Positions 3,659 to 64,000 of a DNA stretch of 64,000 nt are shown here, in pieces. The notes beneath the pieces were generated by a model. That model was not told where the DNA came from. It did no database searches and saw nothing but the letters and a program-made list of their open reading frames with translations. Position 1 is the first letter of the stretch. Every line of letters starts with the position of its first letter. The DNA lies in assembly GCF_032444005.1 (NCBI RefSeq), contig NC_091283.1, positions 372,062,001 to 372,126,000 of the forward strand, given 5' to 3'. Position numbers and translations under genes: made by a program. The DNA is from Ranitomeya imitator (Eukaryota).

Positions 3659-4974
3659 TTACTTGATTATATCAGGTGTATGTTCTGTTGTACTATTTGC
3701 CAATAACACAAATCTGTAGCAAAAAGAGAATGGCTCATCCTCTGTGTGATTTCTCTTATGTCTAATAAGATGTGATTTATCTGTAAAACATATCCCACAT
3801 TTTGAACATGGATATGGATTCTCCCTCGTGTGACTTCTCAGATGTGTAACAAGATGTGATTTCTCGATAAAACATTTCCCACATTCTGAACATAGAAATG
3901 GCTTCTCCCCTGTGTGAATTCGCTGATGTGTAGCAAGATGTGATTTCTGGTTAAAACATTTCCCACATTCTGAACATGAATATGGTCGCTCCCCTGTATG
4001 AATTCTCTGATGTCTAACAAGATGGGATTTTTCGGTAAAACATATACCACATTCTGAGCATGAAAATGGCCTCTCCCCTGTGTGAATCCTCTGATGTGTA
4101 ATAAGGTGTGATTTCTTGGTAAAATATCTGCCACATTCTAAACATGAAAATGGCTTCTCCCCTGTGTGAATTTGCTTATGAGCAATAAGATGTGATTTCT
4201 CTGTAAAGCATTTCCCACATTCTGAACATGAAAACGTTTTCTCCCCTGTGTGAAGTTTCTGATGTCTAACAAGATGTGATTTCTTTGTAAAATTCATTCC
4301 ACATTCTGAGCATGAAAATGGCCTTTCACCTGTGTGAATTCTCTGATGTTTAACAAGATATGATTTTAGGATAAAACATTTCCCACATTCTAAGCATGAA
4401 TATGGTTTCTCCCCTGTGTGAATTTTCTTATGTGTAACAAGATACGATCTATCTGTAAAACATTTCCCACATTCTAAACAAGAAAATGTCTTCTCACCTG
4501 TGTGAGTTCTCTGATGTCTAATAAGATGTGATTTCTTGGCAAAACATGTCCCACATTCCAAACATGAAAATGGTTTCTCCCCTACGTGAGTACTCTGATG
4601 TCTAACAAGATATGATTCTTTATTAAAACATTTCCCACAATCTGAGCATGTAAATGGCTTTGATTCTCTGTGAAGTTTCTCATGTTTAACAAGACTTGAT
4701 TTATCTGTAAAACATTTTCCACATTTTATACATGAAAATGGCTTCTCCACTGTGTGAAAATTTTCTTCTTTCTTTTTATCCTCCTTAACATTCTGTGATA
4801 AGTCATAAGATATGAGCTGTTGATAAGGATCAGATGATAAATCTTCACTGCGAAAAGCAGAGGGTATATCTAGGAGAATGTCATTTTCTTCATATATAAC
4901 CGGTATTATATCTTCATCATCTTCTTTAAAATCTGTAGACATCACATATCCCTCTGAGCGTCTGATATAGTCAC
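3659..4974 (-). CDS. Gene A last exon: acidic spacer plus 12 tandem C2H2 fingers
   Basis: ORF 3659-4945 has 12 CxxC-x12-HxxxH repeats at 28-aa period. Splice acceptor cttacttttaacAG ends at 4975. Confidence 0.97.
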
Positions 4975-23430: not shown

Positions 23431-24134
23431 TCATTCAAGTGACTATTTTTTTCCTTTAGTATGTGAAAGAATCGTACCAATTTTAATCAGTGTTTTAGAT
23501 TAGATTTTTATTCGAGTTTGGTCAGTGTTTCATCAGGAATTGTCTAGTAACCAAAAAAAAATAAAAAAAATGCAAAGCTGTGTTCTGGCCATGATTTTCA
23601 CAGACCAATACACTTATTTGGCTGGTGACACACAAGTTTTTTTTTCTCTCTCGTGAGTGAGATTTGGGCCAATTATGGTAATGACATTGTCAGTGTTTGA
23701 TCCAAGTGTCACCTTAGTGTGATCCGATTCTCTAAGAAGAGAATGTCACAGCACAGCATACGAGAAGATGGAGAACAAAATTTCTCCATTTATTTTGTGC
23801 GAGTTCATCGGACAGCACTCTGATGACATCTGAGTGCAGTCCCGATGTTTCACTCGCACCTAAACACTTGAATGGGCGAGTGTGATCCGATCATCAAATT
23901 CACTCGATCTGCCCTGCCCCACAGTATGACATTAGGTCGAGTGCAATCCGATTTAATCAGATTGCACTCGTCCAATTTATACGCTCGTGTTTTTCGCAAG
24001 CCCGATGGGTGATTTCGACCCATGAACTTAAAAAAAAGGTGGTCATTTCTCTATGATTTGTTTGCAACTCACAACAATAGAGATAGAGCAAATATGTGGA
24101 AAAACAGAGGTCTGAATGAGAGCTTAAACAGAAA

Positions 24135-30326: not shown

Positions 30327-30774
30327 ACGGAAGGGCTGATTCTTAGGAAGGAAGGCTGTTGGAAATAAGCATTGCGCGTCCGAGGGTGATTATATTCTTA
30401 TTAGGTATATACTCACCCTCGGACGCGCCCTGCTTCTTTATTTGGAATGAATGTTTATTTGCAATGTGGTGTTGACTTTCTCTATTATTTTGGTAATTAA
30501 TGATTTTATTATTTTCATTATTTTGCATCTTCTCGGCAATAATATAAAGAAGACGCGACAGGACAACACTCGGTGGATGCCATATGTGTGTTTTCAATTT
30601 AAAAAAACTTTCAGTTAACTACTTGCAGGAGAAAGTAATTGTAGCTGGTGGCCATTTTTAGTACTGTACCAGATTAGAGTTGTGTGTTTGTTTTTAATGT
30701 TAAAATGTCTGCATTTGATATCTCACCAGTATTTTCTTTTTTATAAGCAAAATACTTATTTTTATATTTTCTGA

Positions 30775-33700
30775 TGTTGGTTCCAGGGGTACACGGCCAG
30801 CAGTGCCCTGGTCAGTGTAGTAGTAGTTGAAAGAATGGACCGCAGACAGGCATCGAAGGCCTAAAATAATAACACATGGCTGTAGGCAATTTTAAATTGG
30901 TTCCAGGGGTACACGGACAGCAGTGGTGTGGTCAGTGGAGGCCTAGTGGAAGGAGTGACCGCAGACAGGCATCGAAGGCCTAAAATAATAACACATGGCT
31001 GTAGGCAATTTTAAATTGGTTCCAGGGGTACACGGGCAGCAGTGACCTGGTCAGTGTAGTAGTAGTTGAAAGAATGGACCGCAGACAGGCATCGAAGGCC
31101 TAAAATAAAAAAATTGGGCTGGCTGTAGGCAATTTTAAATTGGTTCCAGGGGTACACGGGCAGCAGTGGTGTGGTCAGTGGAGGCCTAGTGGAAGGAGTG
31201 ACCGCAGACAGGCATCGAAGGCCTAAAATAATAACACATGGCTGTAGGCAATTTTAAATTGGTTCCAGGGGTACACGGGCAGCAGTGACCTGGTCAGTGT
31301 AGTAGTAGTTGAAAAAATGGACCGCAGACAGGCATCGAAGGCCTAAAATAAAAAAATTGGGCTGGCTGTAGGCAATTTTAAATTGGTTCCAGGGGTACAC
31401 GGACAGCAGTGGTGTGGTCAGTGGAGGCCTAGTGGAAGGAGTGACCGCAGACAGGCATCGAAGGCCTAAAATAATAACACATGGCTGTAGGCAATTTTAA
31501 ATTGGTTCCAGGGGTACACGGACAGCAGTGGTGTGGTCAGTGGAGGCCTAGTGGAAGGAGTGACCGCAGACAGGCATCGAAGGCCTAAAATAATAACACA
31601 TGGCTGTAGGCAATTTTAAATTGGTTCCAGGGGTACACGGACAGCAGTGGTGTGGTCAGTGGAGGCCTAGTGGAAGGAGTGACCGCAGACAGGCATCGAA
31701 GGCCTAAAATAATAACACATGGCTGTAGGCAATTTTAAATTGGTTCCAGGGGTACACGGACAGCAGTGACCTGGTCAGTGTAGTAGTAGTTGAAAGAATG
31801 GACCGCAGACAGGCATCGAAGGCCTAAAATAAAAAAATTGGGCTGGCTGTAGGCAATTTTAAATTGGTTCCAGGGGTACACGGGCAGCAGTGGTGTGGTC
31901 AGTGGAGGCCTAGTGGAAGGAGTGACCGCAGACAGGCATCGAAGGCCTAAAATAATAACACATGGCTGTAGGCAATTTTAAATTGGTTCCAGGGGTACAC
32001 GGACAGCAGTGGTGTGGTCAGTGGAGGCCTAGTGGAAGGAGTGACCGCAGACAGGCATCGAAGGCCTAAAATAATAACACATGGCTGTAGGCAATTTTAA
32101 ATTGGTTCCAGGGGTACACGGACAGCAGTGACCTGGTCAGTGTAGTAGTAGTTGAAAGAATGGACCGCAGACAGGCATCGAAGGCCTAAAATAAAAAAAT
32201 TGGGCTGGCTGTAGGCAATTTTAAATTGGTTCCAGGGGTACACGGACAGCAGTGGTGTGGTCAGTGGAGGCCTAGTGGAAGGAGTGACCGCAGACAGGCA
32301 TCGAAGGCCTAAAATAATAACACATGGCTGTAGGCAATTTTAAATTGGTTCCAGGGGTACACGGACAGCAGTGGTGTGGTCAGTGGAGGCCTAGTGGAAG
32401 GAGTGACCGCAGACAGGCATCGAAGGCCTAAAATAATAACACATGGCTGTAGGCAATTTTAAATTGGTTCCAGGGGTACACGGACAGCAGTGACCTGGTC
32501 AGTGTAGTAGTAGTTGAAAGAATGGACCGCAGACAGGCATCGAAGGCCTAAAATAAAAAAATTGGGCTGGCTGTAGGCAATTTTAAATTGGTTCCAGGGG
32601 TACACGGACAGCAGTGGTGTGGTCAGTGGAGGCCTAGTGGAAGGAGTGACCGCAGACAGGCATCGAAGGCCTAAAATAATAACACATGGCTGTAGGCAAT
32701 TTTAAATTGGTTCCAGGGGTACACGGACAGCAGTGGTGTGGTCAGTGGAGGCCTAGTGGAAGGAGTGACCGCAGACAGGCATCGAAGGCCTAAAATAATA
32801 ACACATGGCTGTAGGCAATTTTAAATTGGTTCCAGGGGTACACGGGCAGCAGTGACCTGGTCAGTGTAGTAGTAGTTGAAAAAATGGACCGCAGACAGGC
32901 ATCGAAGGCCTAAAATAAAAAAATTGGGCTGGCTGTAGGCAATTTTAAATTGGTTCCAGGGGTACACGGACAGCAGTGGTGTGGTCAGTGGAGGCCTAGT
33001 GGAAGGAGTGACCGCAGACAGGCATCGAAGGCCTAAAATAATAACACATGGCTGTAGGCAATTTTAAATTGGTTCCAGGGGTACACGGACAGCAGTGGTG
33101 TGGTCAGTGGAGGCCTAGTGGAAGGAGTGACCGCAGACAGGCATCGAAGGCCTAAAATAATAACACATGGCTGTAGGCAATTTTAAATTGGTTCCAGGGG
33201 TACACGGACAGCAGTGACCTGGTCAGTGTAGTAGTAGTTGAAAGAATGGACCGCAGACAGGCATCGAAGGCCTAAAATAAAAAAATTGGGCTGGCTGTAG
33301 GCAATTTTAAATTGGTTCCAGGGGTACACGGGCAGCAGTGGTGTGGTCAGTGGAGGCCTAGTGGAAGGAGTGACCGCAGACAGGCATCGAAGGCCTAAAA
33401 TAATAACACATGGCTGTAGGCAATTTTAAATTGGTTCCAGGGGTACACGGACAGCAGTGGTGTGGTCAGTGGAGGCCTAGTGGAAGGAGTGACCGCAGAC
33501 AGGCATCGAAGGCCTAAAATAATAACACATGGCTGTAGGCAATTTTAAATTGGTTCCAGGGGTACACGGACAGCAGTGACCTGGTCAGTGTAGTAGTAGT
33601 TGAAAGAATGGACCGCAGACAGGCATCGAAGGCCTAAAATAAAAAAATTGGGCTGGCTGTAGGCAATTTTAAATTGGTTCCAGGGGTACACGGACAGCAG

Positions 33701-35475
33701 TGGTGTGGTCAGTGGAGGCCTAGTGGAAGGAGTGACCGCAGACAGGCATCGAAGGCCTAAAATAATAACACATGGCTGTAGGCAATTTTAAATTGGTTCC
33801 AGGGGTACACGGACAGCAGTGGTGTGGTCAGTGGAGGCCTAGTGGAAGGAGTGACCGCAGACAGGCATCGAAGGCCTAAAATAATAACACATGGCTGTAG
33901 GCAATTTTAAATTGGTTCCAGGGGTACACGGACAGCAGTGACCTGGTCAGTGTAGTAGTAGTTGAAAGAATGGACCGCAGACAGGCATCGAAGGCCTAAA
34001 ATAAAAAAATTGGGCTGGCTGTAGGCAATTTTAAATTGGTTCCAGGGGTACACGGACAGCAGTGGTGTGGTCAGTGGAGGCCTAGTGGAAGGAGTGACCG
34101 CAGACAGGCATCGAAGGCCTAAAATAATAACACATGGCTGTAGGCAATTTTAAATTGGTTCCAGGGGTACACGGACAGCAGTGGTGTGGTCAGTGGAGGC
34201 CTAGTGGAAGGAGTGACCGCAGACAGGCATCGAAGGCCTAAAATAATAACACATGGCTGTAGGCAATTTTAAATTGGTTCCAGGGGTACACGGACAGCAG
34301 TGACCTGGTCAGTGTAGTAGTAGTTGAAAGAATGGACCGCAGACAGGCATCGAAGGCCTAAAATAAAAAAATTGGGCTGGCTGTAGGCAATTTTAAATTG
34401 GTTCCAGGGGTACACGGGCAGCAGTGACCTGGTCAGTGTAGTAGTAGTTGAAAGAATGGACCGCAGACAGGTTTAGAAGGCCTAACATAACAAACTTGGG
34501 CTGGCTGTAGGCACTTTTAAATTGGTTCCAGGGGTACACGGGCAGCAGTGGTCTGGTCAGTGGAAGTCTAGTGGAAGGAGTGACCGCAGACAGGCTTCCA
34601 AGGCCTAACATAACAAACTTGGGCTGGCTGTAGGCACTTTTAAATTGGTTCCAGGGGTACACGGGCAGCAGTGGTCTGGTCAGTGGAAGTCTAGTGGAAG
34701 GAGTGACCGCAGACAGGCTTCCAAGGCCTAACATAACAAACTTGGGCTGGCTGTAGGCACTTTTAAATTGGTTCCAGGGGTACACGGGCAGCAGTGGTCT
34801 GGTCAGTGGAAGTCTAGTGGAAGGAGTGACCGCAGACAGGCTTCCAAGGCCTAACATAACAAACTTGGGCTGGCTGTAGGCACTTTTAAATTGGTTCCAG
34901 GGGTACACGGGCAGCAGTGGTCTGGTCAGTGGAAGTCTAGTGGAAGGAGTGACCGCAGACAGGCTTCCAAGGCCTAACATAACAAACTTGGGCTGGCTGT
35001 AGGCACTTTTAAATTGGTTCCAGGGGTACACGGGCAGCAGTGGTCTGGTCAGTGGAAGTCTAGTGGAAGGAGTGACCGCAGACAGGCTTCCAAGGCCTAA
35101 CATAACAAACTTGGGCTGGCTGTAGGCACTTTTAAATTGGTTCCAGGGGTACATGGGCAGCAGTGGTCTGGTCAGTGGAAGTCTAGTGGAAGGAGTGACC
35201 GCAGACAGGCTTCGAAGGCCTAACATAACAAAATTGGGCTGGCTGTAGGCACTTTAAATTGGTTCCAGGGGTACATGGGCAGCAGTGTATGGTCAGTGGA
35301 AGTCTAGTGGAAGGAGTGACGGCAGACAGTCTTCGAAGGCCTAACATAACAAAATTGGGCTGACTGTAGGCACTTTTAAATTGGTTCCAGGGTAACACGG
35401 CCAGCAGTGGCCTGGTCAGTGTAGTAGTTGTAGAAAGAAGGGACCGCAGACAGGCTTCGAAGGCCTAACATAACA
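30775..35475. repeat. 119/124/123-bp satellite (about 39 monomers) with a 362-bp higher-order repeat, inside the hAT
   Basis: B monomers (cagcagtgacctgg) at 31761, 32123, 32485, 32847, 33209, 33571, 33933 and 34295, each separated by two 119-bp A monomers. 123-bp C monomers follow from about 34540. Confidence 0.97.
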
Positions 35476-35938: not shown

Positions 35939-38900
35939 CTAGGTGTCAGCCGGGCAGGGTGGGGCAAAAGATTTTGAAATCCAGTTGTGGTTCATTTTAA
36001 TGAAGGTTAGATCATCTACATTTTGGGTAGCCAGACGAGTCCTTTTTTCTGTTAGTATTGAACCTGCAGCACTGAATACTCTTTCTGATAGGACACTAGC
36101 TGCCGGGCAAGCAAGCTCCTGCAATGCATATTCTGCCAATTCTGGCCAGGTGTCTAATTTGGATGCCCAGTAATCAAATGGGAATGACGGTTGAGGGAGA
36201 ACGTCGATAAGGGATGAAAAATAGTTTGTAACCATACTGGACAAATGTTGTCTCCTGTCACTTTGAATTGATGCTGCAGTACCTGTCCTGTCTGCGGTCA
36301 TAGAAAAATCACTCCACAACCTGGTCAGAAAACCCCTCTGTCCAACGCCACTTCTGATTTCTGCCCCTCTAACACCTCTGGTCTGCTGGCCCCTGGAGCT
36401 CGTGTGAGAACGATCACGGGCGCTGTGTGCAGGGAATGCCAGAAGCAAACGGTCAACAAGAGTTGATTGTTTTGTTGCTAATATTAGTTCCAAGTTCTCA
36501 TGTGGCATAATATTTTGCAATTTGCCTTTATAGCGAGGATCAAGGAGGCAGGCCAACCAGTAATCGTCATCGTTCATCATTTTTGTAATGCGTGTGTCCC
36601 TTTTGAGGATACGCAAGGCATAATCCGCCATGTGGGCCAAAGTTCCCGTTGTCAAATCTGCGGTTGTGCTTGGTTGAGGGGCAGTTGCAGGCAAATCTAC
36701 GTCACTTGTGTCCCTCAAAAAACCAGAACCCGGCCTTGCCACGCCACCAATTTCCCGTGCCCCCGGGAAAGCTTCCTCATTAAAAATATACTCATCCCCA
36801 TCATCCTCCTCATCCTCCACCTCCTCTTCGCCCGGTACCTCGTCATGTACACTGCCCTGACCAGACAATCGCTGACTGTCATCAAGGCTTTCCTCTTCCT
36901 CTGGTGCAGACGCCTGATCCTTTATGTGCGTCAAACTTTGCATCAGCAGACGCATTAGGGGGATGCTCATGCTTATTATGGCGTTGTCTGCACTAACCAG
37001 CCGTGTGCATTCCTCAAAACACTGAAGGACTTGACACATGTCTTGAATCTTCGACCACTGCACACCTGACAACTCCATGTCTGCCATCCTACTGCCTGCC
37101 CGTGTATGTGTATCCTCCCACAAAAACATAACAGCCCGCCTCTGTTCGCACAGTCTCTGAAGCATGTGCAGTGTTGAGTTCCACCTTGTTGCAACGTCTA
37201 TGATTAGGCGATGCTGGGGAAGGTTCAAAGAACGCTGATAGGTCTGCATACGGCTGGAGTGTACAGGCGAACGGCGGATATGTGCGCAAAGTCCACGCAC
37301 TTTGAGGAGCAGGTCGGATAACCCCGGATAACTTTTCAGGAAGCACTGCACCACCAGGTTTAAGGTGTGAGCCAGGCAAGGAATGTGTTTCAGTTGGGAA
37401 AGGGAGATGGCAGCCATGAAATTCCTTCCGTTATCACTCACTACCTTGCCTGCCTCAAGATCTACAGTGCCCAGCCACGACTGCGTTTCTTGCTGCAAGA
37501 ACTCGGACAGAACTTCCGCGGTGTGTCTATTGTCGCCCAAACACTTCATAGCCAATACAGCCTGCTGACGTATGCCAGTAGCTGCCCCATAATGGGAGAC
37601 CTGGTGTGCAACAGTGGCAGGTGCGGATGGAGTGTTTGTGCGACTGCGGTCTGTGGACGAGCTCTTGCTTCTGCAGGAGGACGAGGAGGAGGAGGAGGAG
37701 GGGGTGCGAACGGCTACAGACAACTGTTTACTAGACCGTGGGCTAGGCAGAACTGTCCCAAACTTGCTGTCCCCTGTGGACCCTGAATCCACCACATTTA
37801 CCCAGTGTGCCGTGATGGACACGTAACGTCCCTGGCCATGCCTACTGGTCCATGCATCTGTTGTCAGGTGCACCTTTGTGCTCACAGATTGCCTGAGTGC
37901 ATGGACGATGCGCTCTTTAACATGCTGGTGGAGGGCTGGGATGGCTTTTCTGGAAAAAAAGTGTCGACTGGGTAGCTCGTAGCGTGGTACAGCGTAGTCC
38001 ATCAGGTCTTTGAAAGCTTCGCTTTCAACTAACCGGTAGGGCATCATCTCTAACGAGATTAGTCTAGCTATGTGGGCGTTCAAACCCTGTGTACGCGGAT
38101 GCGAGGCTAAGTATTTCCTTTTTCTAACCATAGTCTCATGTAGGGTGAGCTGGACTGGAGAGCTGGAGATCGTGGAACTAGCGGGGGTGCCGGTGGACAT
38201 GGCAGACTGAGAGACGGTGGGAGATGGTATTGTTGCCGCCGGTGCCCTAGATGCAGTGTTTCCTACTACGAAACTGGTGATTCCCTGACCCTGACTGCTT
38301 TGGCCTGGCAAAGATACCTGCACAGATACAGCAGGTGGTGCGCTAAATGGTGGTCCTACACTGCCGGAAGGGATGTTGCGTTGATGACTAGCTTCATTGG
38401 CCGAGGGTGCAACAACCTTAAGGGACGTTTGGTAGTTAGTCCAAGCTTTCAAATGCATGGTGGTTAAATGTCTATGCATGCAACTAGTATTGAGACTTTT
38501 CAGATTCTGACCTCTGCTTAAGGAAGTAGAACATTTTTGACAGATGACTTTGCGCTGATCAATTGGATGTTGTTTAAAAAAATGCCAGACTGCACTCTTT
38601 CTAGCATCGGATACCTTTTCAGGCATTGCAGACTGAGCTTTAACCGGATGGCCACGCTGTCCTCCACCAGGTTTTGGCTTTGCCACGCGTTTTGGGCAAG
38701 ATACGGGCCCGGCAGATGGAACCTGTGGCGATGTTGATGCCTGCTGCGGCCCCTCCTCCTCCTCTGCTTCAGAACTGCTGCCGCCTGCACCCTGTTCCCC
38801 CAATGGCTGCCAATCGGGGTCAAGAACTGGGTCATCTAATAACTCTTCTTGTACCTCCTGCGCAACTTCGTCTGTGTCACCGTGTCGTTCGGTGGTATAG

Positions 38901-39514
38901 CGTTCGTGATGGGGCAACATAGTCTCATCAGGGTCTGATTCTTGATCAGCACCCTGCGAGGGCAATGTTGTGGTCTGAGTCAAAGGACCAGCATAGTAGT
39001 CTGGCTGTGGCTGTGCGTCAGTGCACTCCATGTCAGATTCAATTTGTAATGGGCATGGACTGTTAACTGCTTCACTTTCTAAGCCAGGGACGGTATGTGT
39101 AAAGAGCTCCATGGAGTAACCCGTTGTGTCGCCTGCTGCATTCTTCTCTGTTGTTGTTTTTGCTGAAGAGGACAAGGAAGTGACTTGTCCCTGACCGTGA
39201 ACATCCACTAACGACGCGCTGCTTTTACTTTTACCAGTTTCACGAGATGAGGCAAAAGAGCTAGAGGCTGAGTCAGCAAGATAAGCCAAAACTTGCTCTT
39301 GCTGCTCCGGCTTTAAAAGCGGTTTTCCTAATCCCAGAAAAGGGAGCGTTCGAGGCCTTGTGTAGCCGGACGACGAACCTGGCTCCACAGCTCCAGACTT
39401 AGGTGCAATATTTTTTCCCCCACGACCACCTGATGCTCCACCACTACCACTACCCTCATTACCAGCTGACAATGAACGCCCCCGGCCACGACCTCTTCCA
39501 CTAGACTTCCTCAT
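35939..39514 (-). CDS. hAT transposase with BED zinc finger (ZBED-like), 1191 aa, intronless
   Basis: BED finger SAVWHFF...VICQKC...MHRHLTTMH. Catalytic motifs HLTTDAWTS, VVSDNGRN, CLAHTLNL (CxxH), TRWNST, and C-terminal dimerization region CPAASVLSERVFSAAG...RL. Confidence 0.95.
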   Translation of the reverse strand: MRKSSGRGRGRGRSLSAGNEGSGSGGASGGRGGKNIAPKSGAVEPGSSSGYTRPRTLPFLGLGKPLLKPEQQEQVLAYLADSASSSFASSRETGKSKSSASLVDVHGQGQVTSLSSSAKTTTEKNAAGDTTGYSMELFTHTVPGLESEAVNSPCPLQIESDMECTDAQPQPDYYAGPLTQTTTLPSQGADQESDPDETMLPHHERYTTERHGDTDEVAQEVQEELLDDPVLDPDWQPLGEQGAGGSSSEAEEEEGPQQASTSPQVPSAGPVSCPKRVAKPKPGGGQRGHPVKAQSAMPEKVSDARKSAVWHFFKQHPIDQRKVICQKCSTSLSRGQNLKSLNTSCMHRHLTTMHLKAWTNYQTSLKVVAPSANEASHQRNIPSGSVGPPFSAPPAVSVQVSLPGQSSQGQGITSFVVGNTASRAPAATIPSPTVSQSAMSTGTPASSTISSSPVQLTLHETMVRKRKYLASHPRTQGLNAHIARLISLEMMPYRLVESEAFKDLMDYAVPRYELPSRHFFSRKAIPALHQHVKERIVHALRQSVSTKVHLTTDAWTSRHGQGRYVSITAHWVNVVDSGSTGDSKFGTVLPSPRSSKQLSVAVRTPSSSSSSSSCRSKSSSTDRSRTNTPSAPATVAHQVSHYGAATGIRQQAVLAMKCLGDNRHTAEVLSEFLQQETQSWLGTVDLEAGKVVSDNGRNFMAAISLSQLKHIPCLAHTLNLVVQCFLKSYPGLSDLLLKVRGLCAHIRRSPVHSSRMQTYQRSLNLPQHRLIIDVATRWNSTLHMLQRLCEQRRAVMFLWEDTHTRAGSRMADMELSGVQWSKIQDMCQVLQCFEECTRLVSADNAIISMSIPLMRLLMQSLTHIKDQASAPEEEESLDDSQRLSGQGSVHDEVPGEEEVEDEEDDGDEYIFNEEAFPGAREIGGVARPGSGFLRDTSDVDLPATAPQPSTTADLTTGTLAHMADYALRILKRDTRITKMMNDDDYWLACLLDPRYKGKLQNIMPHENLELILATKQSTLVDRLLLAFPAHSARDRSHTSSRGQQTRGVRGAEIRSGVGQRGFLTRLWSDFSMTADRTGTAASIQSDRRQHLSSMVTNYFSSLIDVLPQPSFPFDYWASKLDTWPELAEYALQELACPAASVLSERVFSAAGSILTEKRTRLATQNVDDLTFIKMNHNWISKSFAPPCPADT

Positions 39515-39779
39515 TGTTTTAAAAACGTAACCAAACTAACGTTATTTGTTGCAGTCACACAACTTACACGGTGAGCTATAACTTCAGTATGATTTAGCTA
39601 CCCCTTTACAGGTTGGTGAGACCACAGCGAAAATCAGGCCCAATGTTACACACTCTTTTTTTGGTGGCTGCAAATTAGAGAGATGCCCCACACGCAGGAC
39701 TGTCACTGAAGCACAAATGTTAATATTAATGTCACACTATTATTTTTTTTTAATTTTTATTTTTTTCAGGAACACTTTA

Positions 39780-46303: not shown

Positions 46304-47871
46304 TCATAGGAGCCAGTCCACTTCTCTATTAAGGCCCTTTGGTGTCATTGTATCCAACTTGTGGATCCAATATGTTTCCCGTGATTTGAGTAGCCTAATG
46401 TGGTCCCCACCTCTTCTGGGGCGAGGAACATGTTCGATGATTTGAAATTTTAACTGGGCCACTGTGTGTCTGGATTTGATGAAGTGGTCTGGCAGGGGTA
46501 GCCAGGTCTTGCCACACCTAATTGTCGATTTGTGGCTAGCGATTCGATCTTTAATCCGTTGTGTGGTTTCCCCCACATATAGGAGGCCACAAGGACACTT
46601 CACTAGGTATACCACAAAGTTTGAATTGCAAGTAAAAAAATCTTTGATTGGGTAGGACCGTCCAGTCCTCGGGTGGGTGATGTTTTCTGACCTAATCACA
46701 TTCGAACAGGCAGCGCAACTGAGGCAGGGGAATGTACCGTTACGGCGGGAAGACAGAAGTTTGTGTGTGGTATTGGGGCGTGTACTCCCTATATCGGCTC
46801 TCACTAATTTGTCTTTGATATTGGGTGGTCTTTTTGTACACATTAGTACTGGTTCCCCAAAGGTCTTGATGTCAGGATAGGCCTTGGACAGGAGCGGCCA
46901 GTGTTTTCTGATGATGGAATGTACTTTGGGTATGAGCGGGTGATAGGTATGTACGAACAGAACTCTCTCAACTGTGTGTCTTGGTGGAGAGGGAGACTGT
47001 GGTGTTAAGGCATGTGTTTTCTCTTCCTGTAGCAACCGATTGGGGTAGTGTCTTTGTTGGAACTTCTGAGCCACTGTGCTTAATCTGTCCTTGCGAATTA
47101 TTGGATCAGAGACAATACGTGACACCCTGTTAAACTGCGAACGCGGTAGACTGTTTTTCATAGATCTTGGGTGGCAGCTGGTATAGTGGAGTAGGCTGTT
47201 GCAGTCCGTTGGTTTGCAATATAGGTCTGTAGTGAGATGTCCCTGAAAATCCAGAAGAACTCTAGTGTCTAAGAATGGTACAGATTTTTTGTCATGGTGG
47301 ATGGTAAATTGGAGCTCAGGGAGGATGGAATTGAGTTGGGAATGAAAAGACATCAGTAGTTCAGTTGTGCCTGTCCAAATGAAAAATATATCATCAATGT
47401 ACCAGTGATAGCTTAGAATATGTTGCCGAAAGAGGTCATTGGTGTACATATGCGTGATTTCGAAGAAATTCATGAAGGCATTGGCATACGCGGGCGCAAC
47501 GTTCGAGCCCATTGCTGTGCCGCATCTCTGGACATAGAATGTGTCTCCCGAAAGAAAGTAGTTCTCGTAAAGTACTATGTGTAGAAGGTCAAGACAGAAC
47601 TGGATGGCGTTACTGGACATGTTAGATAGTTGCAATAGGTACTTAGTGGCTTCCATGCCCTTACTGTGTTGGATTGAAGTGTAGAGGCTGTTGACGTCTA
47701 GTGTAACTAGGGTACTGCCAGGGGGTACTGAGTCTAGTTGTCTAATGGTACTAAGAAAATGTCCGGTGTCCAAAAGGAAGGATTGAGTATTTTTGATGAG
47801 TGGCGTCAGGATTTTCTCAAGGAAAGTGGAGAGGGGAGATAATATGGAATCAGTTGAAGCTACAATAGGCC
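46304..47871 (-). CDS. PLE-B RT plus GIY-YIG ORF, truncated at the RT RPIV motif
   Basis: Open from RPIVASTDSILSP through TLDVNSLYT, GTAMGSNVAPAYANAF, YIDD, CLSCAAC, VVYLVKCPCGLLYVGET, to GLNREVDWLL*. Confidence 0.9.
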
Positions 47872-47894
47872 TGGTTATTTTCTTTATCGTCTAC

Positions 47895-51947: not shown

Positions 51948-52765
51948 TCACAACTGGTATATGTTTTGTTTTTCTACCTGTGAAGAACATAAATCTGTAT
52001 CAAAAAGAAAATACTTTTCCCCTGTGTGATTACTCTTATGTCTTACAAGATGGGGTCTCTGGTTAAAAGATTTACCACATTCTGAACATGAAAATGGCTT
52101 CTCCCCTGTGTGAATTTTATGATGTCTAAGAAGATGTGTTTTTGTCGTGAAACATTTGCCACATTCTGAACATGTAAATGGTTTCACGCCTGTGTGAATT
52201 CTCTGATGTATAACAAGATGTGATTTCACGATAAAACATTTCCCACATTCTGAACATGAAAATGGCTTCACCCCCGTGTGAATTCTCTGATGTCTAACAA
52301 GATGTGTTTTTGTCATGAAACATTTACCACATTCTGAACATGGAAATGGTTTCACCCCTGTGTGATGACTTTGATGTGAAACAAGATGTGACTTCTGGAT
52401 AAAACCTTTCCCACATTCTAAACATAAAAATGTCTTCTGTTCTGTGTGAATTCTCTGATGTCTGACAAGATGTGATTTCTTGGTAAAACATTTCCCACAA
52501 TATGAGCATGAGAATGGCTTCACCTCTTTGTGATGCTTCTCATGTTTAGCAAGATTTGATTTATGTGTAAACCTTTTGCCACATTTTATACATGAAAATG
52601 GCTTCTCCACTATATGAACTTTTTGGTGGTCAAATTTCTTCCTTTTATTTTTCTTAATATTGTGTGATGCGTCAAAAGATAGACGTTCTTGAAAAGGATC
52701 AGATGATAGATCTTTCATGTGTACTGAAGACATCACATGTCCCTCTGAGCTTCTGAAATAGTCAC
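51948..52765 (-). CDS. Gene B last exon: spacer plus 7 C2H2 fingers
   Basis: Within ORF 51948-52931. Acceptor ttttatttttggcAG ends at 52766. Confidence 0.96.
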
Positions 52766-54630
52766 CTGCCAAAAATAAAACCGAGTTGAAGCTAATAATG
52801 TTAGGATGAGGGTGTCTGTCAGTAAAATCAACCCTAGTAAAGCATCTGTATGGGTATACAGGATATAAAAAGTTTAGTAAAATTATACCTTTGATATCTG
52901 CGATCTGATGTTTTACTCCAGAGAAATGCACATTTTTCTCAATATGAAAATGAGCTGTTAAAATCTCTGAGACTCCGCTTCCAGAGCTTATTTTAAATTA
53001 AAGGGGTGTTAACAGTGTGAGCCATGTAATGACTGACAGTCTGCTCTCCTGATCTACATGTCTCACACTGGTAATGTGGATATCTATGTCCAACCCATAT
53101 ATCTTAACAGCTCATTTACAATTTTAAGAATAACTGGGAAAAAAAGACATCAGATCACATGTATTAAAGCATTGTCTTTCAGCCCTGGAGTGTTGCTTTA
53201 AATGTAATCCCCCTACCCCCATTCTTGTACTCACCTCCTGGAGGCTTCACCTTTTACTCATGCTGCTCAGGTCCTGATATGCTATCTTGTGCCTGTAACT
53301 TCTGAGTGGTTGTAAGTCAGAAGTTACGTCACAAGAGCTCAATGCAAGTCTATCGGAGACAGAAAGAGGCTTTCAGATGTACTGAAAAGTGACCTCCGGC
53401 TTGCTCCATGATACACGGGAGCGACGCTGGAACAGGATGAAGACAGCAGCAGGTAATTGTGAGACGGGGCAGGGGAATTACGTTTAAAGCACCACTCCAG
53501 GGGTGCAATAAAATAAAAATGATGGAGTGGTGCTTTAACAACTTCTCTGCATTTAGTGGTTCCTACTCACCTGGGTAGTCATCCGTAGGAATCTCCTCTT
53601 TACACCGCTCATCACCCCTCACATATGTCTCTGTAGTATTAATATGGGTCAGATCTTCACCCTGAAACAAATATTGTACAAGTCACAGACAGATGGAGAA
53701 GTCACATCTATGATCAGCTCTAATCCTGCCATCTCCACCGTTCTCATTACACAAGTATAAAACATATAATACTGGTGGATAAAACAAGACTGAGCACAAG
53801 ACCTTCACAGCTGTCTACACATCATAGGGGAGATCTCATGACACCTTTCCACCTACCTGACGATATTGAGGAATATTGGAATTTTCTTCTTTACAGTCCT
53901 GTGAAAGAAGAGGACGAGGACATCTCTCTGGTGTTGTCCTCTTACTGGATACAACTGAAGGAAACAGATACAGGGCCTGAATTCATTCTTTACATACAGA
54001 TAATTATAGGCCATATGTATTAAGTCCTGTCTATTACCTGGTGATGTGAGGGGCTGGGGAACCTCCATCATGACATCCTTGTACAGATCTTTGTGTCCTT
54101 CTAAATACTCCCACTCCTCCATGGAGAAATAGATGGTGATGTCCTGACACCTTATAGGAACCTAGCACATACAATGATACCGTCATCCCCCTATCCCTTC
54201 ATAGCATTACTGTATAATGTCCCAGAATTCCCAGCAGCATCACCTCTCCAGTCAGCAGCTCAATCATCTTGTAGGTGAGTTCTAGGATCTTCTGGTCATC
54301 AATCTCCTCATGTATCAGGGGGTGAGGTGGAGGCCCCGTGATTGGACTCAGGGGTCTTCCCCATCCCTCACACACAGGGTCCTGACAGCTCTCACTAGAG
54401 GTCTTCTTCACCACTGTGTAATCCTGGTTATGGAGAGACACATTAATAAATCTCACTACAGACATTTCCAGAGTCCTCACCTTTCCAGTTCTGTCCATCT
54501 GTTATTCCCATAGATAAGAATGATGTAATGTGACGTCATCAGAACCCCTCACCTCTCCAGTAAGCCGGAAGAGGATCTCTAGAGTGAGGTTCAATATCTT
54601 CTCCACCATCTTTTCTCTGTCCCTATCCAT
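51948..54630 (-). CDS. FAX/KRAB-like C2H2 zinc-finger protein, gene B (paralog of gene A), 462 aa, 7 fingers
   Basis: Six GT-AG coding exons: 54630-54553, 54423-54244, 54161-54038, 53954-53857, 53661-53571, 52765-51948. They sum to 1389 nt (463 codons) with phases 0,0,1,0,1. [26 protein letters not shown] / DYTVVKK / [33 protein letters not shown] / [15 protein letters not shown] / [25 protein letters not shown] / fingers. Confidence 0.92.
53168..53534. mobile_element. TTAA-flanked MITE (Kolobok/T2-like) in the last intron of gene B
   Basis: TTAA at 53164-67 and 53535-38. Inverted repeats ccctggagtgttgctttaaa / tttaaagcaccactccaggg near both ends. Confidence 0.5.
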
Positions 54631-57410: not shown

Positions 57411-58399
57411 TTTTAATTCTCTTTGTGGCTTTGCTTTTAGTTTTGTGTCAGTTTTTGGTTTGCAAGCAGCAGAGTAGAAAGCTCTATGCAAAACAGTTCT
57501 GTAGGAGTCTGAACACAGGCCAAAGCCACTGACACACACACGACTGATATGGTGGTGCAGTCGCCCACGGCAACAGAGTGTTAATGACTGTGATGGAGAA
57601 TCTGGTAAGTTGCCAAAGTAAAATTTTTTGCGCCAACGGCCGCCATCTTCTCTGTTGTGAATTCTGTGGCTGAGTTCACTTCTGTGGTCACAAGTGGTAT
57701 TGCAGTCTCTGGGCTTCCTCCCTCAGGTGTTTTGGTGAGCTCGTTGGCTGCCTTGCTATTTAGCTCCACCTGAGTCTGTCTTCCTTGCTCCTTGTCAATG
57801 TTCCAGTGTTGGATCTGAGCTACTGCATCTTTCCTTGGGCCTGCTGCTCTGCTAGATAAGTGCTTCTAGTTTGATTTCTGTTTTTTCTGTCCAGCTTGCT
57901 ATTAACTTTTGCTGGAAGCTCTGAGAAGCAAAGGGGTGCACCGCCGTGCTGTTAGTTCGGCACGGTGGGTCTTTTGCCCCTTTGCGTGGTTTTCGTTTTA
58001 GGGTTTTTTGTAGACTGCATAGTTCTCTTTGCTATCCTCGCTCTGTCTAGAATATCGGGCCTCACTTTGCTGAATCTATTTCATTCCTACGTTTGTCTTT
58101 TCATCTTGCTAACAGTCATTATATGTGGGGGGCTGCCTATTCCTTTGGGGTATTTCTCTGAGGTAAGTCAGGCTTGTATTTCTATCTTCAGGCTAGTCAG
58201 CTCCTCAGGCAGTGCCGAGTTGCATAGGTAGTGATAGGCGCAATCCACTGCTGCTTCCAGTTGTGTGAGGATAGATCAGGTACTGCAGTCTACAGAGATT
58301 CCACGTCTCAGAGCTCGTCCTATTGTTTTGGGTTATTGCCAGATCTCTGTATGTGCGCTGATTACTGCACGCTGTGTTGCCTGATTGCCAGCCATAACA

Positions 58400-58411
58400 G
58401 TACAAGGAGCC
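58400..58411 (+). promoter_or_regulatory. Non-tRNA primer-binding site (candidate self-priming site)
   Basis: GTACAAGGAGCC has no TGG. ACAAGGAGC (58402-58410) is the exact complement of GCTCCTTGT (57787-57795), 30 nt after TATTTA (57757). Confidence 0.6.
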
Positions 58412-58531
58412 TCACCAATGATTTCCAATAGAGGGAAAAAAGAAATCCTGACATCATTTTTTTTTCTTAGCTCTGTCTTCAGTCTTTTTTTTCCCCTAGA
58501 CATTAGAGTGCTTCAGGACACAGCTGTGGAC

Positions 58532-61500
58532 ATGGATATTCAGGCTCTGTGCTCCTCAATGGATAATCTCGTTGTAAATGTACAAAAGATTCAAGATACT
58601 ATTGATCAGAAATCGATGCTAGAACCAAGAATTCCGATTCCTGATTTGTTTTTTGGTGACAGAACTAAGTTCCTGAGCTTCAGAAATAATTGTAAGCTAT
58701 TTTTGGCCTTGAAACCTCATTCTTCTGGTAATCCTATTCAACAGGTTTTGATTATTATTTCTTTTTTGCGCGGCGACCCACAGGACTGGGCGTTTTCTCT
58801 TGCACCAGGAGATTCTGCATTGAGTAATGTTGATGCATTTTTCCAGGCGCTGGGATTGCTTTACGATGAGCCTAATTCAGTGGATCAAGCTGAGAAAAAT
58901 CTGCTGGCTTTATGCCAGGGTCAGGATGATGTAGAAGTATATTGTCAGAAATTTAGAAAATGGTCAGTACTCACTCTGTGGAATGAATCTGCACTAGCGG
59001 CTTTGTTCAGAAAGGGTCTCTCTGAAGCTCTTAAGGATGTAATGGTGGGATTTCCTATGCCTGCTGGTTTGAATGAGTCTATGTCCTTGGCCATTCAGAT
59101 CGGTCGTCGCTTGCGCGAGCGTAAATCTGTGCACCATCTGGCGGTATTGTCTGAGAGTAAGCCTGAGCCTATGCAGTGCGACAGGACTATGACTAAAGTA
59201 GAACGGCACGAACACAGACGTCTGAACAGACTGTGTTTCTATTGTGGTGATTCTACTCATGCTATTTCTAATTGTCCTAAACGCACTAGGCGGTTCGATA
59301 GCTCTGCCGTTATTGGTACTGTACAGTCCAAATTCCTTTTGTCCATTACCTTAATGTGCTCTTTGTCATCATATTCTGTCATGGCGTTTGTGGATTCAGG
59401 CGCTGCCCTGAATCTGATGGATTTGGATTATGCTAAACGTTGTGGATTTTTCTTGGAGCCCTTGCGGTGTCCTATTCCGTTGAGAGGAATTGATGCTACA
59501 CCTCTGGCCAAGAATAAGCCTCAGTACTGGGCCCAGCTGACCATGTGCATGGCTCCTGCACATCAGGAAGTTATTCGCTTTTTGGTACTGCATAATTTGC
59601 ATGATGTGGTCGTGTTGGGGTTGCCATGGCTACAAACCCATAATCCAGTATTGGATTGGAACTCTATGTCGGTAACCAGCTGGGGTTGTCAGGGAGTACA
59701 TGGTGATGTTCCATTTTTGTCTATTTCGTCATCCATTCCTTCTGACATCCCAGAGTTCTTGTCGGACTTTCAGGATGTATTTGAAGAGTCCAAGTCTGAT
59801 GCCCTTCCTCCGCATAGGAATTGTGATTGTGCTATCGATTTGATTCCTGGTAGTAAATTCCCTAAGGGTCGTTTATTTAATTTGTCCGTACCTGAACACA
59901 CCGCTATGCGCAGTTATGTGAAGGAGTCCCTGGAGAAGGGACATATTCGCCCATCGTCGTCACCATTGGGAGCAGGGTTCTTTTTTGTAGCCAAGAAGGA
60001 TGGTTCGCTAAGACCGTGTATTGATTACCGCCTTCTTAATAAGATCACTGTTAAGTTTCAGTATCCCTTGCCATTGATTTCTGACTTGTTTGCTCGGATT
60101 AAGGGGGCTAGTTGGTTTACTAAGATTGATCTTCGTGGTGCGTATAATCTGGTGAGAATCAGGCAGGGAGATGAATGGAAAACGGCATTTAATACGCCCG
60201 AGGGTCATTTTGAGTATCTGGTGATGCCGTTCGGACTTGCCAATGCTCCATCTGTTTTTCAGTCTTTTATGCATGACATTTTCCGTGAGTATCTGGATAA
60301 ATTCTTGATTGTTTACTTGGATGACATTTTGATCTTCTCAGATGATTGGGAGTCTCATGTGAAGCAAGTCAGAATGGTTTTCCAGGTACTGCGTGCTAAT
60401 TCCTTGTTCGTGAAGGGATCAAAGTGTCTCTTCGGTGTGCAGAAAGTTTCATTTTTGGGGTTCATCTTTTCCCCTTCTACTATCGAGATGGATCCGGTTA
60501 AGGTTCAGGCCATCCAGGATTGGACTCAGCCGACATCTCTAAAAAGTTTGCAGAAATTCCTGGGCTTTGCTAATTTTTATCGTCGCTTCATCTGTAATTT
60601 TTCTAGCATTGCCAGACCATTGACCGATTTGACCAAGAAGGGTGCTGATTTGGTTAATTGGTCTTCTGCTGCCGTGGAAGCTTTTCAGGAGTTGAAGCGT
60701 CGTTTTTGCTGTGCCCCTGTGTTGTGTCAACCTGATGTTTCTCTTCCGTTCCAGGTCGAGGTTGATGCTTCTGAGATTGGTGCAGGGGCGGTTTTGTCAC
60801 AGAGAGGTTCTGGTTGCTCAGTGTTCAAACCATGTGCTTTCTTTTCCAGGAAATTTTCTGCTGCTGAGCGTAATTATGATGTGGGCAACCGAGAGTTGCT
60901 GGCCATGAAGTGGGCATTCGAGGAGTGGCGTCATTGGCTTGAGGGTGCTAAGCATCGCGTGGTGGTTTTGACTGATCATAAGAACCTTACTTATCTTGAG
61001 TCTGCCAAGCGCTTGAATCCTAGACAGGCCCGTTGGTCGTTATTTTTTGCTCGTTTTGATTTTGTGGTTTCATACCTTCCGGGCTCTAAAAATGTGAAGG
61101 CGGATGCTCTGTCTAGGAGTTTTGTGCCCGACTCTCCGGGGTTATCTGAGCCGGCGAGTATCCTCAAGGAAGGAGTCATTGTGTCTGCCATCTCCCCTGA
61201 TTTGCGGAGAGTGTTGCAGAAATTTCAGGCTAATAAACCTGATCGTTGTCCGGCCGAGAAATTGTTCGTCCCTGATAGGTGGACTAGTAAAGTTATCTCT
61301 GAACTTCATTGTTCGGTGCTGGCCGGTCATCCAGGAATCTTTGGTACCAGGGAGTTGGTTGCTAGATCCTTCTGGTGGCCATCTCTGTCACGGGATGTGC
61401 GTGCTTTTGTGCAGTCCTGTGGAATTTGTGCTAGGGCTAAGCCCTGCTGTTCACGTGCCAGTGGGTTGCTTTTGCCCTTGCCGGTCCCGAAGAGGCCTTG

Positions 61501-62713
61501 GACACATATTTCGATGGATTTCATTTCTGACCTTCCCGTTTCTCAAAAGATGTCTGTCATTTGGGTGGTCTGTGATCGCTTTTCTAAAATGGTCCATCTG
61601 GTGCCCTTGGTTAAATTGCCTTCCTCCTCTGATTTGGTGCCTTTGTTCTTCCAGCATGTGGTTCGTTTACATGGCATTCCTGAGAATATTGTTTCTGACA
61701 GAGGTTCCCAGTTTGTCTCGAGGTTCTGGCGAGCCTTTTGTGGTAGGATGGGCATTGACCTATCTTTTTCCTCGGCCTTCCATCCTCAGACTAATGGCCA
61801 GACCGAACGAACCAATCAGACCTTGGAAACATATCTGAGATGTTTTGTTTCCGCTGACCAGGATGATTGGGTGTCATTTTTGCCGTTGGCTGAGTTCGCC
61901 CTTAATAATCGGGCCAGCTCGGCTACCTTGGTCTCTCCATTTTTCTGCAATTCTGGGTTCCATCCTCGTTTCTCTTCAGGACAGGTTGAGTCTTCGGACT
62001 GTCCTGGTGTGGATTATGTGGTGGACAGGTTGCAGCAGATCTGGACTCAGGTAGTGGACAATTTGACCTTGTCCCAGGAGAAGGCTCAGCTTTTCGCTAA
62101 TCGCAGACGCCGTGTGGGACCCCGACTTCGTGTTGGGGATCTGGTTTGGTTATCTTCTCGTCATATACCTATGAAGGTTTCCTCTCCTAAATTTAAACCT
62201 CGTTTTATTGGTCCGTATAGGATTTCTGAGATTCTCAATCCGGTGTCTTTTCGTCTGACCCTCCCAGACTCCTTTTCCATACATAATGTATTCCATAGGT
62301 CGTTGTTGAGGAGATACGTGGCACCTATGGTTCCATCTGTGGAGCCTCCTGCCCCTGTTTTGGTGGAGGGGGAATTGGAGTATATTGTGGAGAAGATTTT
62401 GGATTCTCGTGTCTCTAGACGGAAACTCCAGTATCTGGTCAAATGGAAGGGTTATGCTCAGGAAGATAATTCCTGGGTTTTTGCCTCTGATGTCCATGCC
62501 CCAGATCTTGTTCGTGCCTTTCATGTGGCTCATCCTGGTCGGCCTGGGGGTTCTGGTGAGGGTTCGGTGACCCCTCCTCAAGGGGGGGGTACTGTTGTGA
62601 ATTCTGTGGCTGAGTTCACTTCTGTGGTCACAAGTGGTATTGCAGTCTCTGGGCTTCCTCCCTCAGGTGTTTTGGTGAGCTCGTTGGCTGCCTTGCTATT
62701 TAGCTCCACCTGA
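58532..62713 (+). CDS. Single gag-pol polyprotein: Gag, CCHC knuckle, protease, RT, RNase H, integrase, chromodomain
   Basis: Open frame 58385-62713, with likely start MDIQAL at 58532. Motifs CFYCGDSTHAISNC, FVDSGA, YLDD, HHCC and DDE integrase, GPY, EYIVEKILDSR...YLVKWKGY...SW. The stop lies about 120 nt inside the 3' LTR. Confidence 0.95.
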   Translation: MDIQALCSSMDNLVVNVQKIQDTIDQKSMLEPRIPIPDLFFGDRTKFLSFRNNCKLFLALKPHSSGNPIQQVLIIISFLRGDPQDWAFSLAPGDSALSNVDAFFQALGLLYDEPNSVDQAEKNLLALCQGQDDVEVYCQKFRKWSVLTLWNESALAALFRKGLSEALKDVMVGFPMPAGLNESMSLAIQIGRRLRERKSVHHLAVLSESKPEPMQCDRTMTKVERHEHRRLNRLCFYCGDSTHAISNCPKRTRRFDSSAVIGTVQSKFLLSITLMCSLSSYSVMAFVDSGAALNLMDLDYAKRCGFFLEPLRCPIPLRGIDATPLAKNKPQYWAQLTMCMAPAHQEVIRFLVLHNLHDVVVLGLPWLQTHNPVLDWNSMSVTSWGCQGVHGDVPFLSISSSIPSDIPEFLSDFQDVFEESKSDALPPHRNCDCAIDLIPGSKFPKGRLFNLSVPEHTAMRSYVKESLEKGHIRPSSSPLGAGFFFVAKKDGSLRPCIDYRLLNKITVKFQYPLPLISDLFARIKGASWFTKIDLRGAYNLVRIRQGDEWKTAFNTPEGHFEYLVMPFGLANAPSVFQSFMHDIFREYLDKFLIVYLDDILIFSDDWESHVKQVRMVFQVLRANSLFVKGSKCLFGVQKVSFLGFIFSPSTIEMDPVKVQAIQDWTQPTSLKSLQKFLGFANFYRRFICNFSSIARPLTDLTKKGADLVNWSSAAVEAFQELKRRFCCAPVLCQPDVSLPFQVEVDASEIGAGAVLSQRGSGCSVFKPCAFFSRKFSAAERNYDVGNRELLAMKWAFEEWRHWLEGAKHRVVVLTDHKNLTYLESAKRLNPRQARWSLFFARFDFVVSYLPGSKNVKADALSRSFVPDSPGLSEPASILKEGVIVSAISPDLRRVLQKFQANKPDRCPAEKLFVPDRWTSKVISELHCSVLAGHPGIFGTRELVARSFWWPSLSRDVRAFVQSCGICARAKPCCSRASGLLLPLPVPKRPWTHISMDFISDLPVSQKMSVIWVVCDRFSKMVHLVPLVKLPSSSDLVPLFFQHVVRLHGIPENIVSDRGSQFVSRFWRAFCGRMGIDLSFSSAFHPQTNGQTERTNQTLETYLRCFVSADQDDWVSFLPLAEFALNNRASSATLVSPFFCNSGFHPRFSSGQVESSDCPGVDYVVDRLQQIWTQVVDNLTLSQEKAQLFANRRRRVGPRLRVGDLVWLSSRHIPMKVSSPKFKPRFIGPYRISEILNPVSFRLTLPDSFSIHNVFHRSLLRRYVAPMVPSVEPPAPVLVEGELEYIVEKILDSRVSRRKLQYLVKWKGYAQEDNSWVFASDVHAPDLVRAFHVAHPGRPGGSGEGSVTPPQGGGTVVNSVAEFTSVVTSGIAVSGLPPSGVLVSSLAALLFSST

Positions 62714-64000
62714 GTCTGTCTTCCTTGCTCCTTGTCAATGTTCCAGTGTTGGATCTGAGCTACTGCATCTTTCCTTGGGCCTGCTGCTCTGCTAGATAAG
62801 TGCTTCTAGTTTGATTTCTGTTTTTTCTGTCCAGCTTGCAATTAACTTTTGCTGGAAGCTCTGAGAAGCAAAGGGGTGCACCGCCGTGCTGTTAGTTCGG
62901 CACGGTGGGTCTTTTGCCCCTTTGCGTGGTTTTCGTTTTAGGGTTTTTTGTAGACTGCATAGTTCTCTTTGCTATCCTCGCTCTGTCTAGAATATCGGGC
63001 CTCACTTTGCTGAATCTATTTCATTCCTACGTTTGTCTTTTCATCTTGCTAACAGTCATTATATGTGGGGGGCTGCCTATTCCTTTGGGGTATTTCTCTG
63101 AGGTAAGTCAGGCTTGTATTTCTATCTTCAGGCTAGTCAGCTCCTCAGGCAGTGCCGAGTTGCATAGGTAGTGATAGGCGCAATCCACTGCTGCTTCCAG
63201 TTGTGTGAGGATAGATCAGGTACTGCAGTCTACAGAGATTCCACGTCTCAGAGCTCGTCCTATTGTTTTGGGTTATTGCCAGATCTCTGTATGTGCGCTG
63301 ATTACTGCACGCTGTGTTGCCTGATTGCCAGCCATAACACTTCTCCAAAGCGGTCGGCGCCATTTGTAAATCAGCAACATCCGCCATCTTTACTTCTTTT
63401 GCAGTGGTCCACTGCTCTGTCTCTGTCATCCGCATGCAATGCTGTAACGGCGGGCAACAAAGCACAAGTCCCAAATTCACACTCATCAATCTTCAAATTG
63501 CTGTCAGCTGACAGCTCCATTTCTTCCAGCTCAGGCAGCATATCACACATTTCAGATTCATAGTCCAGGTCAGCTGCCATCTCTAATTCTTCTATGGCGG
63601 TCACTTCAAATCACAAGTCCTTAGGCTGCGGGGGTCCATCCTGCCAACTAGGCCAAGTGTAACAAGGGGCACCAGGGTGGTAGGTCCGGACCAAGCTCAC
63701 CCACTAAACACAGTCTGTAGACATCCCCGCCCCTTGTACATGCAATCTGGGATGGATTCAGCCTTTCCCCCAAAAAGAGTTACCTTCTCTGTTCTGGTTG
63801 CAGCAGTCCAAGCGATTAATACTCCAGAAAGACAGCTGTTCTCCAACAGGGAAAAGAACGTAACTTTTAATAAACAGGAATAGAGTAGAATAACAGAAGA
63901 ATACAGCACTGAGATTCCTGATCTCTCCCTGACACGCTTCACAGCTGCACCCACAGAAGCTGAAGCAGCCACAGATAGACAGTAGTCCACACGCAGGGAT

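Follow-up and report, generated by a model that had tools for sequence, protein, structure and literature searches.

A chromovirus of the frog Ranitomeya imitator, lying within the 64,000-nt stretch of genomic DNA analysed here (the window), very probably primes its reverse transcription in the manner of Tf1, using the predicted 9-nt capped 5' end of its own RNA. The preliminary description had put this reading forward from a single copy, and it is supported by two kinds of evidence: PBS (primer-binding site) and LTR (long terminal repeat) covary among related families, and the genomic copies carry behind the PBS a C and a variable patch, a footprint that the description had not seen. The patch marks the end of the primer copy, and the covariation identifies which RNA primes. 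With less confidence, we lean towards the view that these chromoviruses write their own cap into the genome, the C representing m7G and the variable bases representing additions by reverse transcriptase (RT), so that the copies would record the transcription start together with a scar of each insertion; the clade would be distinct in its 9-nt primer, its lack of a three-helix scaffold and its 6-bp stagger.

The whole element spans positions 57653-63339 and is composed of the following features.

57647..57652, + strand: left copy of the target-site duplication, CTTCTC, 6 bp, missed in the preliminary description
57653..58399, + strand: 5' LTR, TG...CA, 747 bp
57757..57762, + strand: TATA-like box TATTTA, lying 30 nt upstream of the predicted start
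57787..57795, + strand: predicted RNA nucleotides 1-9 and predicted self-primer, GCTCCTTGT, an exact complement of the PBS, placed by the predicted start site
58371..58401, + strand: predicted hairpin at the U5 end, adjoining the primer-PBS helix
58400..58401, + strand: 2-nt spacer GT from LTR end to PBS, mirrored by AC between polypurine tract and 3' LTR and presumably removed by integrase
58402..58410, + strand: PBS core ACAAGGAGC, without variation in 58 of 58 copies selected by gag alone
58411..58411, + strand: C that follows the PBS without being encoded in the LTR, likely a copy of the m7G cap
58412..58414, + strand: hypervariable patch, which probably consists of untemplated bases that became fixed when the second strand transfer took place
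58418..58531, + strand: upstream in-frame ATG with a putative 38-codon Gag extension, a basic patch followed by a hydrophobic run
58532..62713, + strand: single frame for gag-protease-RT-RNase H-integrase-SH3-chromodomain, its last 40 codons inside the 3' LTR
62580..62589, + strand: polypurine tract (PPT), AA then eight G, followed by TAC and the 3' LTR
62593..63339, + strand: 3' LTR, 747 bp, with a second copy of the 9-mer at 62727-62735
63340..63345, + strand: right copy of the target-site duplication, 6 bp

The element had been described as an intact and very young chromovirus, and it is one. An open frame of 1393 codons is preserved, and the two LTRs differ at 1 of 747 positions, the sole difference lying at 57900. 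The frame opens at ATG 58532 and contains gag, RT, RNase H, integrase, SH3 and chromo domains, the chromodomain standing at the integrase end (PF00385, E 3.4e-13, residues 1284-1331), and a protease (DSG) and a CCHC knuckle can be read from the translation. Ty3 Gag-Pol is the best solved relative of the product. The LTRs with TG...CA ends, the PPT, the target duplication and the order protease-RT-RNase H-integrase are those of a chromovirus. Frame lengths vary among copies, with 1442, 1483 and 1493 codons from stop to stop, and in 51 of 53 copies, as in three of five close sister copies, intervening T-runs leave the upstream ATG at 58418 in frame with gag. The 38-residue extension that it would add is possibly a membrane-binding N-terminus of Gag.

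The match on which the earlier proposal rested was located correctly: the sequence after the LTR, GTACAAGGAGCC, contains no TGG, TATTTA starts at 57757, 30 nt upstream of 57787, and 58402-58410 (ACAAGGAGC) is the exact reverse complement of LTR bases 57787-57795 (GCTCCTTGT). The pairing begins at +3 from the LTR end and not directly at it, and it extends no further on either side. Its probability by chance had been put at 0.3%, which is about sevenfold too low; a match arose in 2.1% of 5000 dinucleotide-shuffled LTRs, because the LTR strand is rich in T and C, and in 4.3% when any start from +1 to +5 was allowed. With a chance of 2-4%, the single copy alone is only suggestive. A further point counted against self-priming is that neither AATAAA nor ATTAAA occurs on the sense strand of the LTR (57653-58399), so that R and U5 cannot be placed.

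Comparison among families was more informative, and covariation between PBS and LTR had been named in the preliminary description as a check. To this end, 140 stretches were fetched around gag and SH3 matches, and element ends were set by the LTR pair and target duplication only. Including the element in the window, 53 of 141 loci passed, the other 88 having no LTR pair bounded by a target-site duplication. Among these 53 elements, PBS and LTR pair perfectly in 40, show one mismatch at the same site in ten and have a displaced PBS in three. When one representative was taken for each of 16 PBS cores, all 16 paired 9/9 at their own TATA+30/31 and none of 240 swapped pairs did so; these representatives were picked as perfect matches, the unselected figure being the 40, ten and three given above. 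The full PBS complement occurred anywhere in the foreign LTR in only 1 of the 240 swapped pairs. A 17th core, found in L277 and L284, also pairs with its own LTR. In all 16 families the pairing starts at +3 and the LTR site begins with G, and a TATA-like motif lies at -30 in 15 families and at -31 in one, a count of 16/16 that is somewhat generous since the motif list was widened after the sequences had been seen. The site itself moves within the LTR from about base 120 to about base 470. Judged by this comparison, the pairing lies far beyond chance, and the complementarity expected of Tf1/sushi elements, between the PBS and an LTR stretch at the transcript start, is found together with covariation at TATA+30/31, where the start is predicted.

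One exception counts against the reading. The young sister copy L276, with LTRs 99.7% alike, pairs at only 8/9 positions, and the mismatch falls at the predicted 3' end of the primer. The three elements with a displaced PBS (L172, L173 and L193), copies of one family, were considered as a different priming type and rejected, as their LTR is of the L188 family and has its U5 end in duplicate. This duplicated U5 end sits between the 5' LTR and the PBS, and it perhaps arose from aberrant strand transfer.

The second line of evidence comes from the junction behind the PBS. For this purpose, 60 copies were chosen on the gag protein match only, of which 58 were scored for junctions and 52 for haplotypes (8 of 60 dropped); 30 loci selected on the PBS region itself were left out of the variability counts. 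None of the 58 copies has a TGG after the LTR, which argues against a primer with a CCA end. Positions +1 to +11 are invariant in 58/58, and the primer stretch 57787-57795 has one variant base in a single copy of the 58. Position +12 is C in 57/58, and this C is not encoded by the LTR, because the LTR base before the primer is T. The three positions that follow (58412-58414) are the top three entropy columns of 942 among the 58 copies. Across the 52 copies, the five-column patch window holds 14 haplotypes, compared with seven in the next window and a median of one over the whole element. There are 11 singleton patch forms where 0.44 would be expected from a background of private substitutions only. 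A nearest-neighbour test (9 of 52 copies share a form) and parsimony (25 changes, against at most eight in windows away from the patch) are both weak and were not used as support, because the family tree is star-like.

Similar junctions are seen in other families. A C follows the PBS core in 15 of 16 families and at 78 of 80 junctions of the families with a 10-nt primer, while the LTR base at -1 is a pyrimidine in 14 families and G in two. A second family shows seven forms behind the PBS in ten copies. In the survey of sister-family junctions, seven of 20 loci had no scorable junction. Two observations count against the reading: the sister copy L096 has T in place of C, and the largest sampled 10-nt family has only six forms in 25. 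In the families L161, L163, L169, L178, L188, L190 and L195, the gag ATG stands directly after the PBS and its C and is kept at 17/17 junctions, so that the PBS end and the start-codon context overlap. In these families the C may be kept as translation-start context, which is also counted against the reading.

Errors of Ty1 reverse transcription are known to cluster at template ends. In the accessible parts of the relevant reports, the first base that MMLV RT adds on capped RNA is dC (PMC6885630), untemplated additions are made by Tf1 RT (PMC11042837; PMC3185545), and a single-stranded PBS that has been copied is present on about half of the Tf1 cDNA (PMC11042837). The C and the hypervariable patch provide support, independent of the LTR match, for placing the 5' end of the primer at G57787.

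Taken together, a plausible course of events can be outlined. RNA polymerase II would start at G57787, 30 nt after TATTTA, and RNA bases 1-9, whose complementarity to 58402-58410 is observed in the DNA, would pair with them in the RNA. Cleavage after base 9, by RNase H if the analogy with Tf1 holds, would free a 3' end from which RT could copy the GT spacer, U5 and R. Either the RNA molecule itself or a second, co-packaged one would supply the primer. During plus-strand synthesis the primer would be copied to its end, and the C found behind the PBS would have been placed opposite the cap; one to three untemplated bases would then be added, some of which would be fixed after the second strand transfer. 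Integrase would trim 2-nt ends, which would stem from the GT spacer and from the AC at the PPT end. If the primer is copied into the PBS, the joint change of PBS and LTR would be accounted for as well. Contigs from four runs guessed to be RNA cover the element; being assembled, they show no starts.

The alternative that survives best, itself very unlikely, is that the primer is element RNA cut from the 3' copy of R (62727-62735) or from another internal position and not from the capped front. The 9-mer is indeed present in the 3' LTR too, and the PBS of two copies, L086 and L092, fits the 3' LTR better than the 5' LTR. Such an internal primer, however, would have to be cut twice, and its position at TATA+30 in 16 families would be left without a reason. 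It also predicts an A behind the PBS, since the LTR base at -1 is T, whereas C is seen in 57/58. As to the two better-fitting copies, single changes of the 5' LTR after insertion are common (L191, L156, L170), and the LTRs of L092 are only 91% alike.

It is even less probable that a host tRNA fragment or another small RNA primes the element and that the LTR match is chance or secondary. The modest odds of the single-copy match would allow this, and half-tRNA primers that leave no TGG are known in plant copia elements, as the available portion of PMC6317226 describes. Against it, each of the 17 cores would require a host RNA of its own and, by coincidence, a match at a single fixed place in the promoter. 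An Rfam scan of 57653-58600 gave no match at E<=1, although a 9-nt match is below its sensitivity. An Rfam tRNA search returned 63 genes, and the eight loci scanned, out of 30, held only tRNA-Lys.

Equally improbable is a conserved structural helix that serves packaging, translation control or PBS protection, with a different primer and with a patch produced by slippage in C/A-rich sequence: covariation as such shows pairing and not priming, and some variants behind the PBS are length changes, but many are substitutions, which slippage does not produce, the helix in every case stops two bases away from the LTR end, the position that the end of a minus-strand primer has to occupy, and no other primer site is present.

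Self-priming by the capped RNA end is the reading that accommodates these observations, and RNA folding lends it only mild support. In the predicted minimum-energy fold the primer-PBS helix is compatible, and enforcing it costs no energy. The duplex is short (-13.9 kcal/mol), which counts against the reading. Its predicted probability is 0.56 in the RNA of the element, above 0.8 in seven of 16 families and at most 0.02 in six, and global folding did not consistently favour the helix across the 16 families. With the primer helix enforced, the hairpin at the U5 end (58371-58401) has pair probabilities of 0.86-0.98; on its own it is weak, 19 of 200 shuffles being as stable.

Priming of Tf1 requires two further helices, as far as the available text of PMC10085805 describes. 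In the element of the window, the helix between leader and U5 has 6 bp, a length reached by 102 of 200 shuffles, and the flanking helices of Tf1 are not evident. A leader-U5 helix beyond chance (at most 2/200 shuffles) is predicted in four of nine families with a 10-nt primer and in none of the seven with a 9-nt primer. L067, L088, L062 and L161 have perfect U5-leader helices of 9-15 bp behind the PBS, beyond chance, and these are candidates for the third helix of the 'pretzel'.

The family is large, young and recently multiplied. All 150 scored gag matches are 100% identical over 150 residues, and all lie in the first 250 Mb of one contig of a 5.96-Gb genome; assuming an even spread, this extrapolates to a few thousand copies genome-wide. 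Between the two LTRs of a copy, 0-6 substitutions (median 1) were counted in 53 full copies. Proteins labelled Ranitomeya imitator (P0011, P0012) match the RT-RNase H region at 100% identity, in keeping with a frog element. Sister families in the flanks have gag proteins 50-81% identical and 9-mers of their own, each of them paired, and RT-RNase H identity among the paired families goes down to 55%.

By its RT-RNase H sequence, the element groups with chromodomain elements of fish, Xenopus and Ascaphus at about 60-64% identity. A tree of this region joins it, with 100/100 support, to elements of fish and amphibians and to two fungal ones, while two algal rows and the outgroup stand outside this branch; this tree included no named Tf1 or sushi-ichi sequence, and the analysis warned of long-branch joins. 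Membership in the Tf1/sushi group is likely. A target duplication of 6 bp was found for 51 of 55 scored family copies and for six of eight sister loci with both ends called, as opposed to 5 bp in 36 other elements bounded by such duplications, which implies a changed integrase stagger. The 6-bp clade forms a single branch with 100/100 support (the loci concerned being the window element, L141-L160, L231-L270, L272, L273, L276, L278, L287 and L290).

Several other repeats and frames are found in the window. Positions 1-1008 hold the 3' end of a second chromovirus, with SH3 and chromodomain in two frames. An open frame of 1198 residues lies on the minus strand at 35939-39535 and presumably resembles hAT transposase. 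The segment 44109-48780 has 139-nt inverted ends and is interrupted by a frame at 46304-47890, which has inverted arms of 171 nt at its borders; we take the former to be a Tc1-like element and the latter to be an RT/GIY-YIG (Penelope-like) frame. Similar frames to the latter occur at 8461-9294 and 24120-26327. A 20-bp tandem array extends from 16.7 kb onward, and a higher-order tandem array of 119/124 bp occupies 30758-34434, with copies up to 100% alike. Frames at 3659-5038 and 51948-52997, both on the minus strand, were labelled from their translations as C2H2 zinc-finger arrays.

To our knowledge, self-priming has been shown in fission yeast and has only been proposed for vertebrate relatives, since about 1997-2001. 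The mechanism itself is thus known and has already been proposed for vertebrate Tf1/sushi elements. What is added here comes from one frog genome: changes that compensate each other, seen for 17 PBS cores, and a footprint from which the base at the primer's 5' end can be named. These observations sharpen the proposal into a prediction, namely that strong-stop DNA should carry a capped RNA of 9 nt that starts at 57787. If the primer is indeed free of tRNA, a very active family would stand outside control by tRNA fragments, and LTR finders based on the PBS would misjudge such elements. The C and its variable patch could also act as a sequence-only test of self-priming in other genomes. The literature available in part contained no experimental test of a vertebrate Tf1/sushi member, no clade that combines a 9-nt primer with a 6-bp target duplication and no cap or run-off footprint in genomic copies; the primary Tf1 papers and Butler 2001 may cover some of this, possibly including the copying of the cap in Tf1.

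Fungal and vertebrate members of the Tf1/sushi group are described, in the portions available, as having self-priming in common (PMC6317226, PMC4600332, PMC10085805); for Tf1 it has been shown, RNase H cutting off a primer of 11 nt (PMC7175516). A start site for Tf2 (PMC5341516) and a model of the Sushi LTR (PMC3601003) are also given in these partial texts. The plant Tcn1 chromoviruses and TAR copia elements resemble the frog element in that their PBS complements their own LTR, likewise a prediction from sequence; they belong to other hosts and lineages, and the accessible part of the source describes no cap or run-off footprint for them (PMC6317226). The frog LTR ends in TGT...ACA as in the Sushi LTR model, whereas that model has an AATAAA that the frog LTR lacks (PMC3601003, as available). 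For Sushi-type vertebrate chromoviruses, self-priming has already been proposed for the group, as it is here for the frog element. Most members of the Tf1/sushi group outside fission yeast use a -1 frameshift, unlike the frog element with its single frame, and the frog Gag has a CCHC knuckle that the fission-yeast elements lack (both from the available text of PMC10085805).

The closest self-primers, as far as the partial sources go, are Tf1 and Tf2 of Schizosaccharomyces pombe, for which the mechanism was shown, and Tj1 and Tosmo, for which it was proposed (PMC7175516, PMC10085805, PMC4600332). The primer is 9 nt in the frog element, 10 nt in most other sampled frog families and 11 nt in Tf1. 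A 2-nt spacer precedes the PBS of the frog element, while that of Tf1 appears to follow the LTR directly (suggested by the available part of PMC11042837). As for the three-helix 'pretzel' of Tf1, its central duplex is predicted in the frog family and the rest is not evident. Ultimately, despite these differences, the frog element shares its single frame with Tf1 and Tf2, and like all four it is a chromodomain Ty3/gypsy element; it probably also shares with them the lack of a tRNA site, and likewise it carries a PBS complementary to the 5' end of its RNA, as predicted here from the start site.
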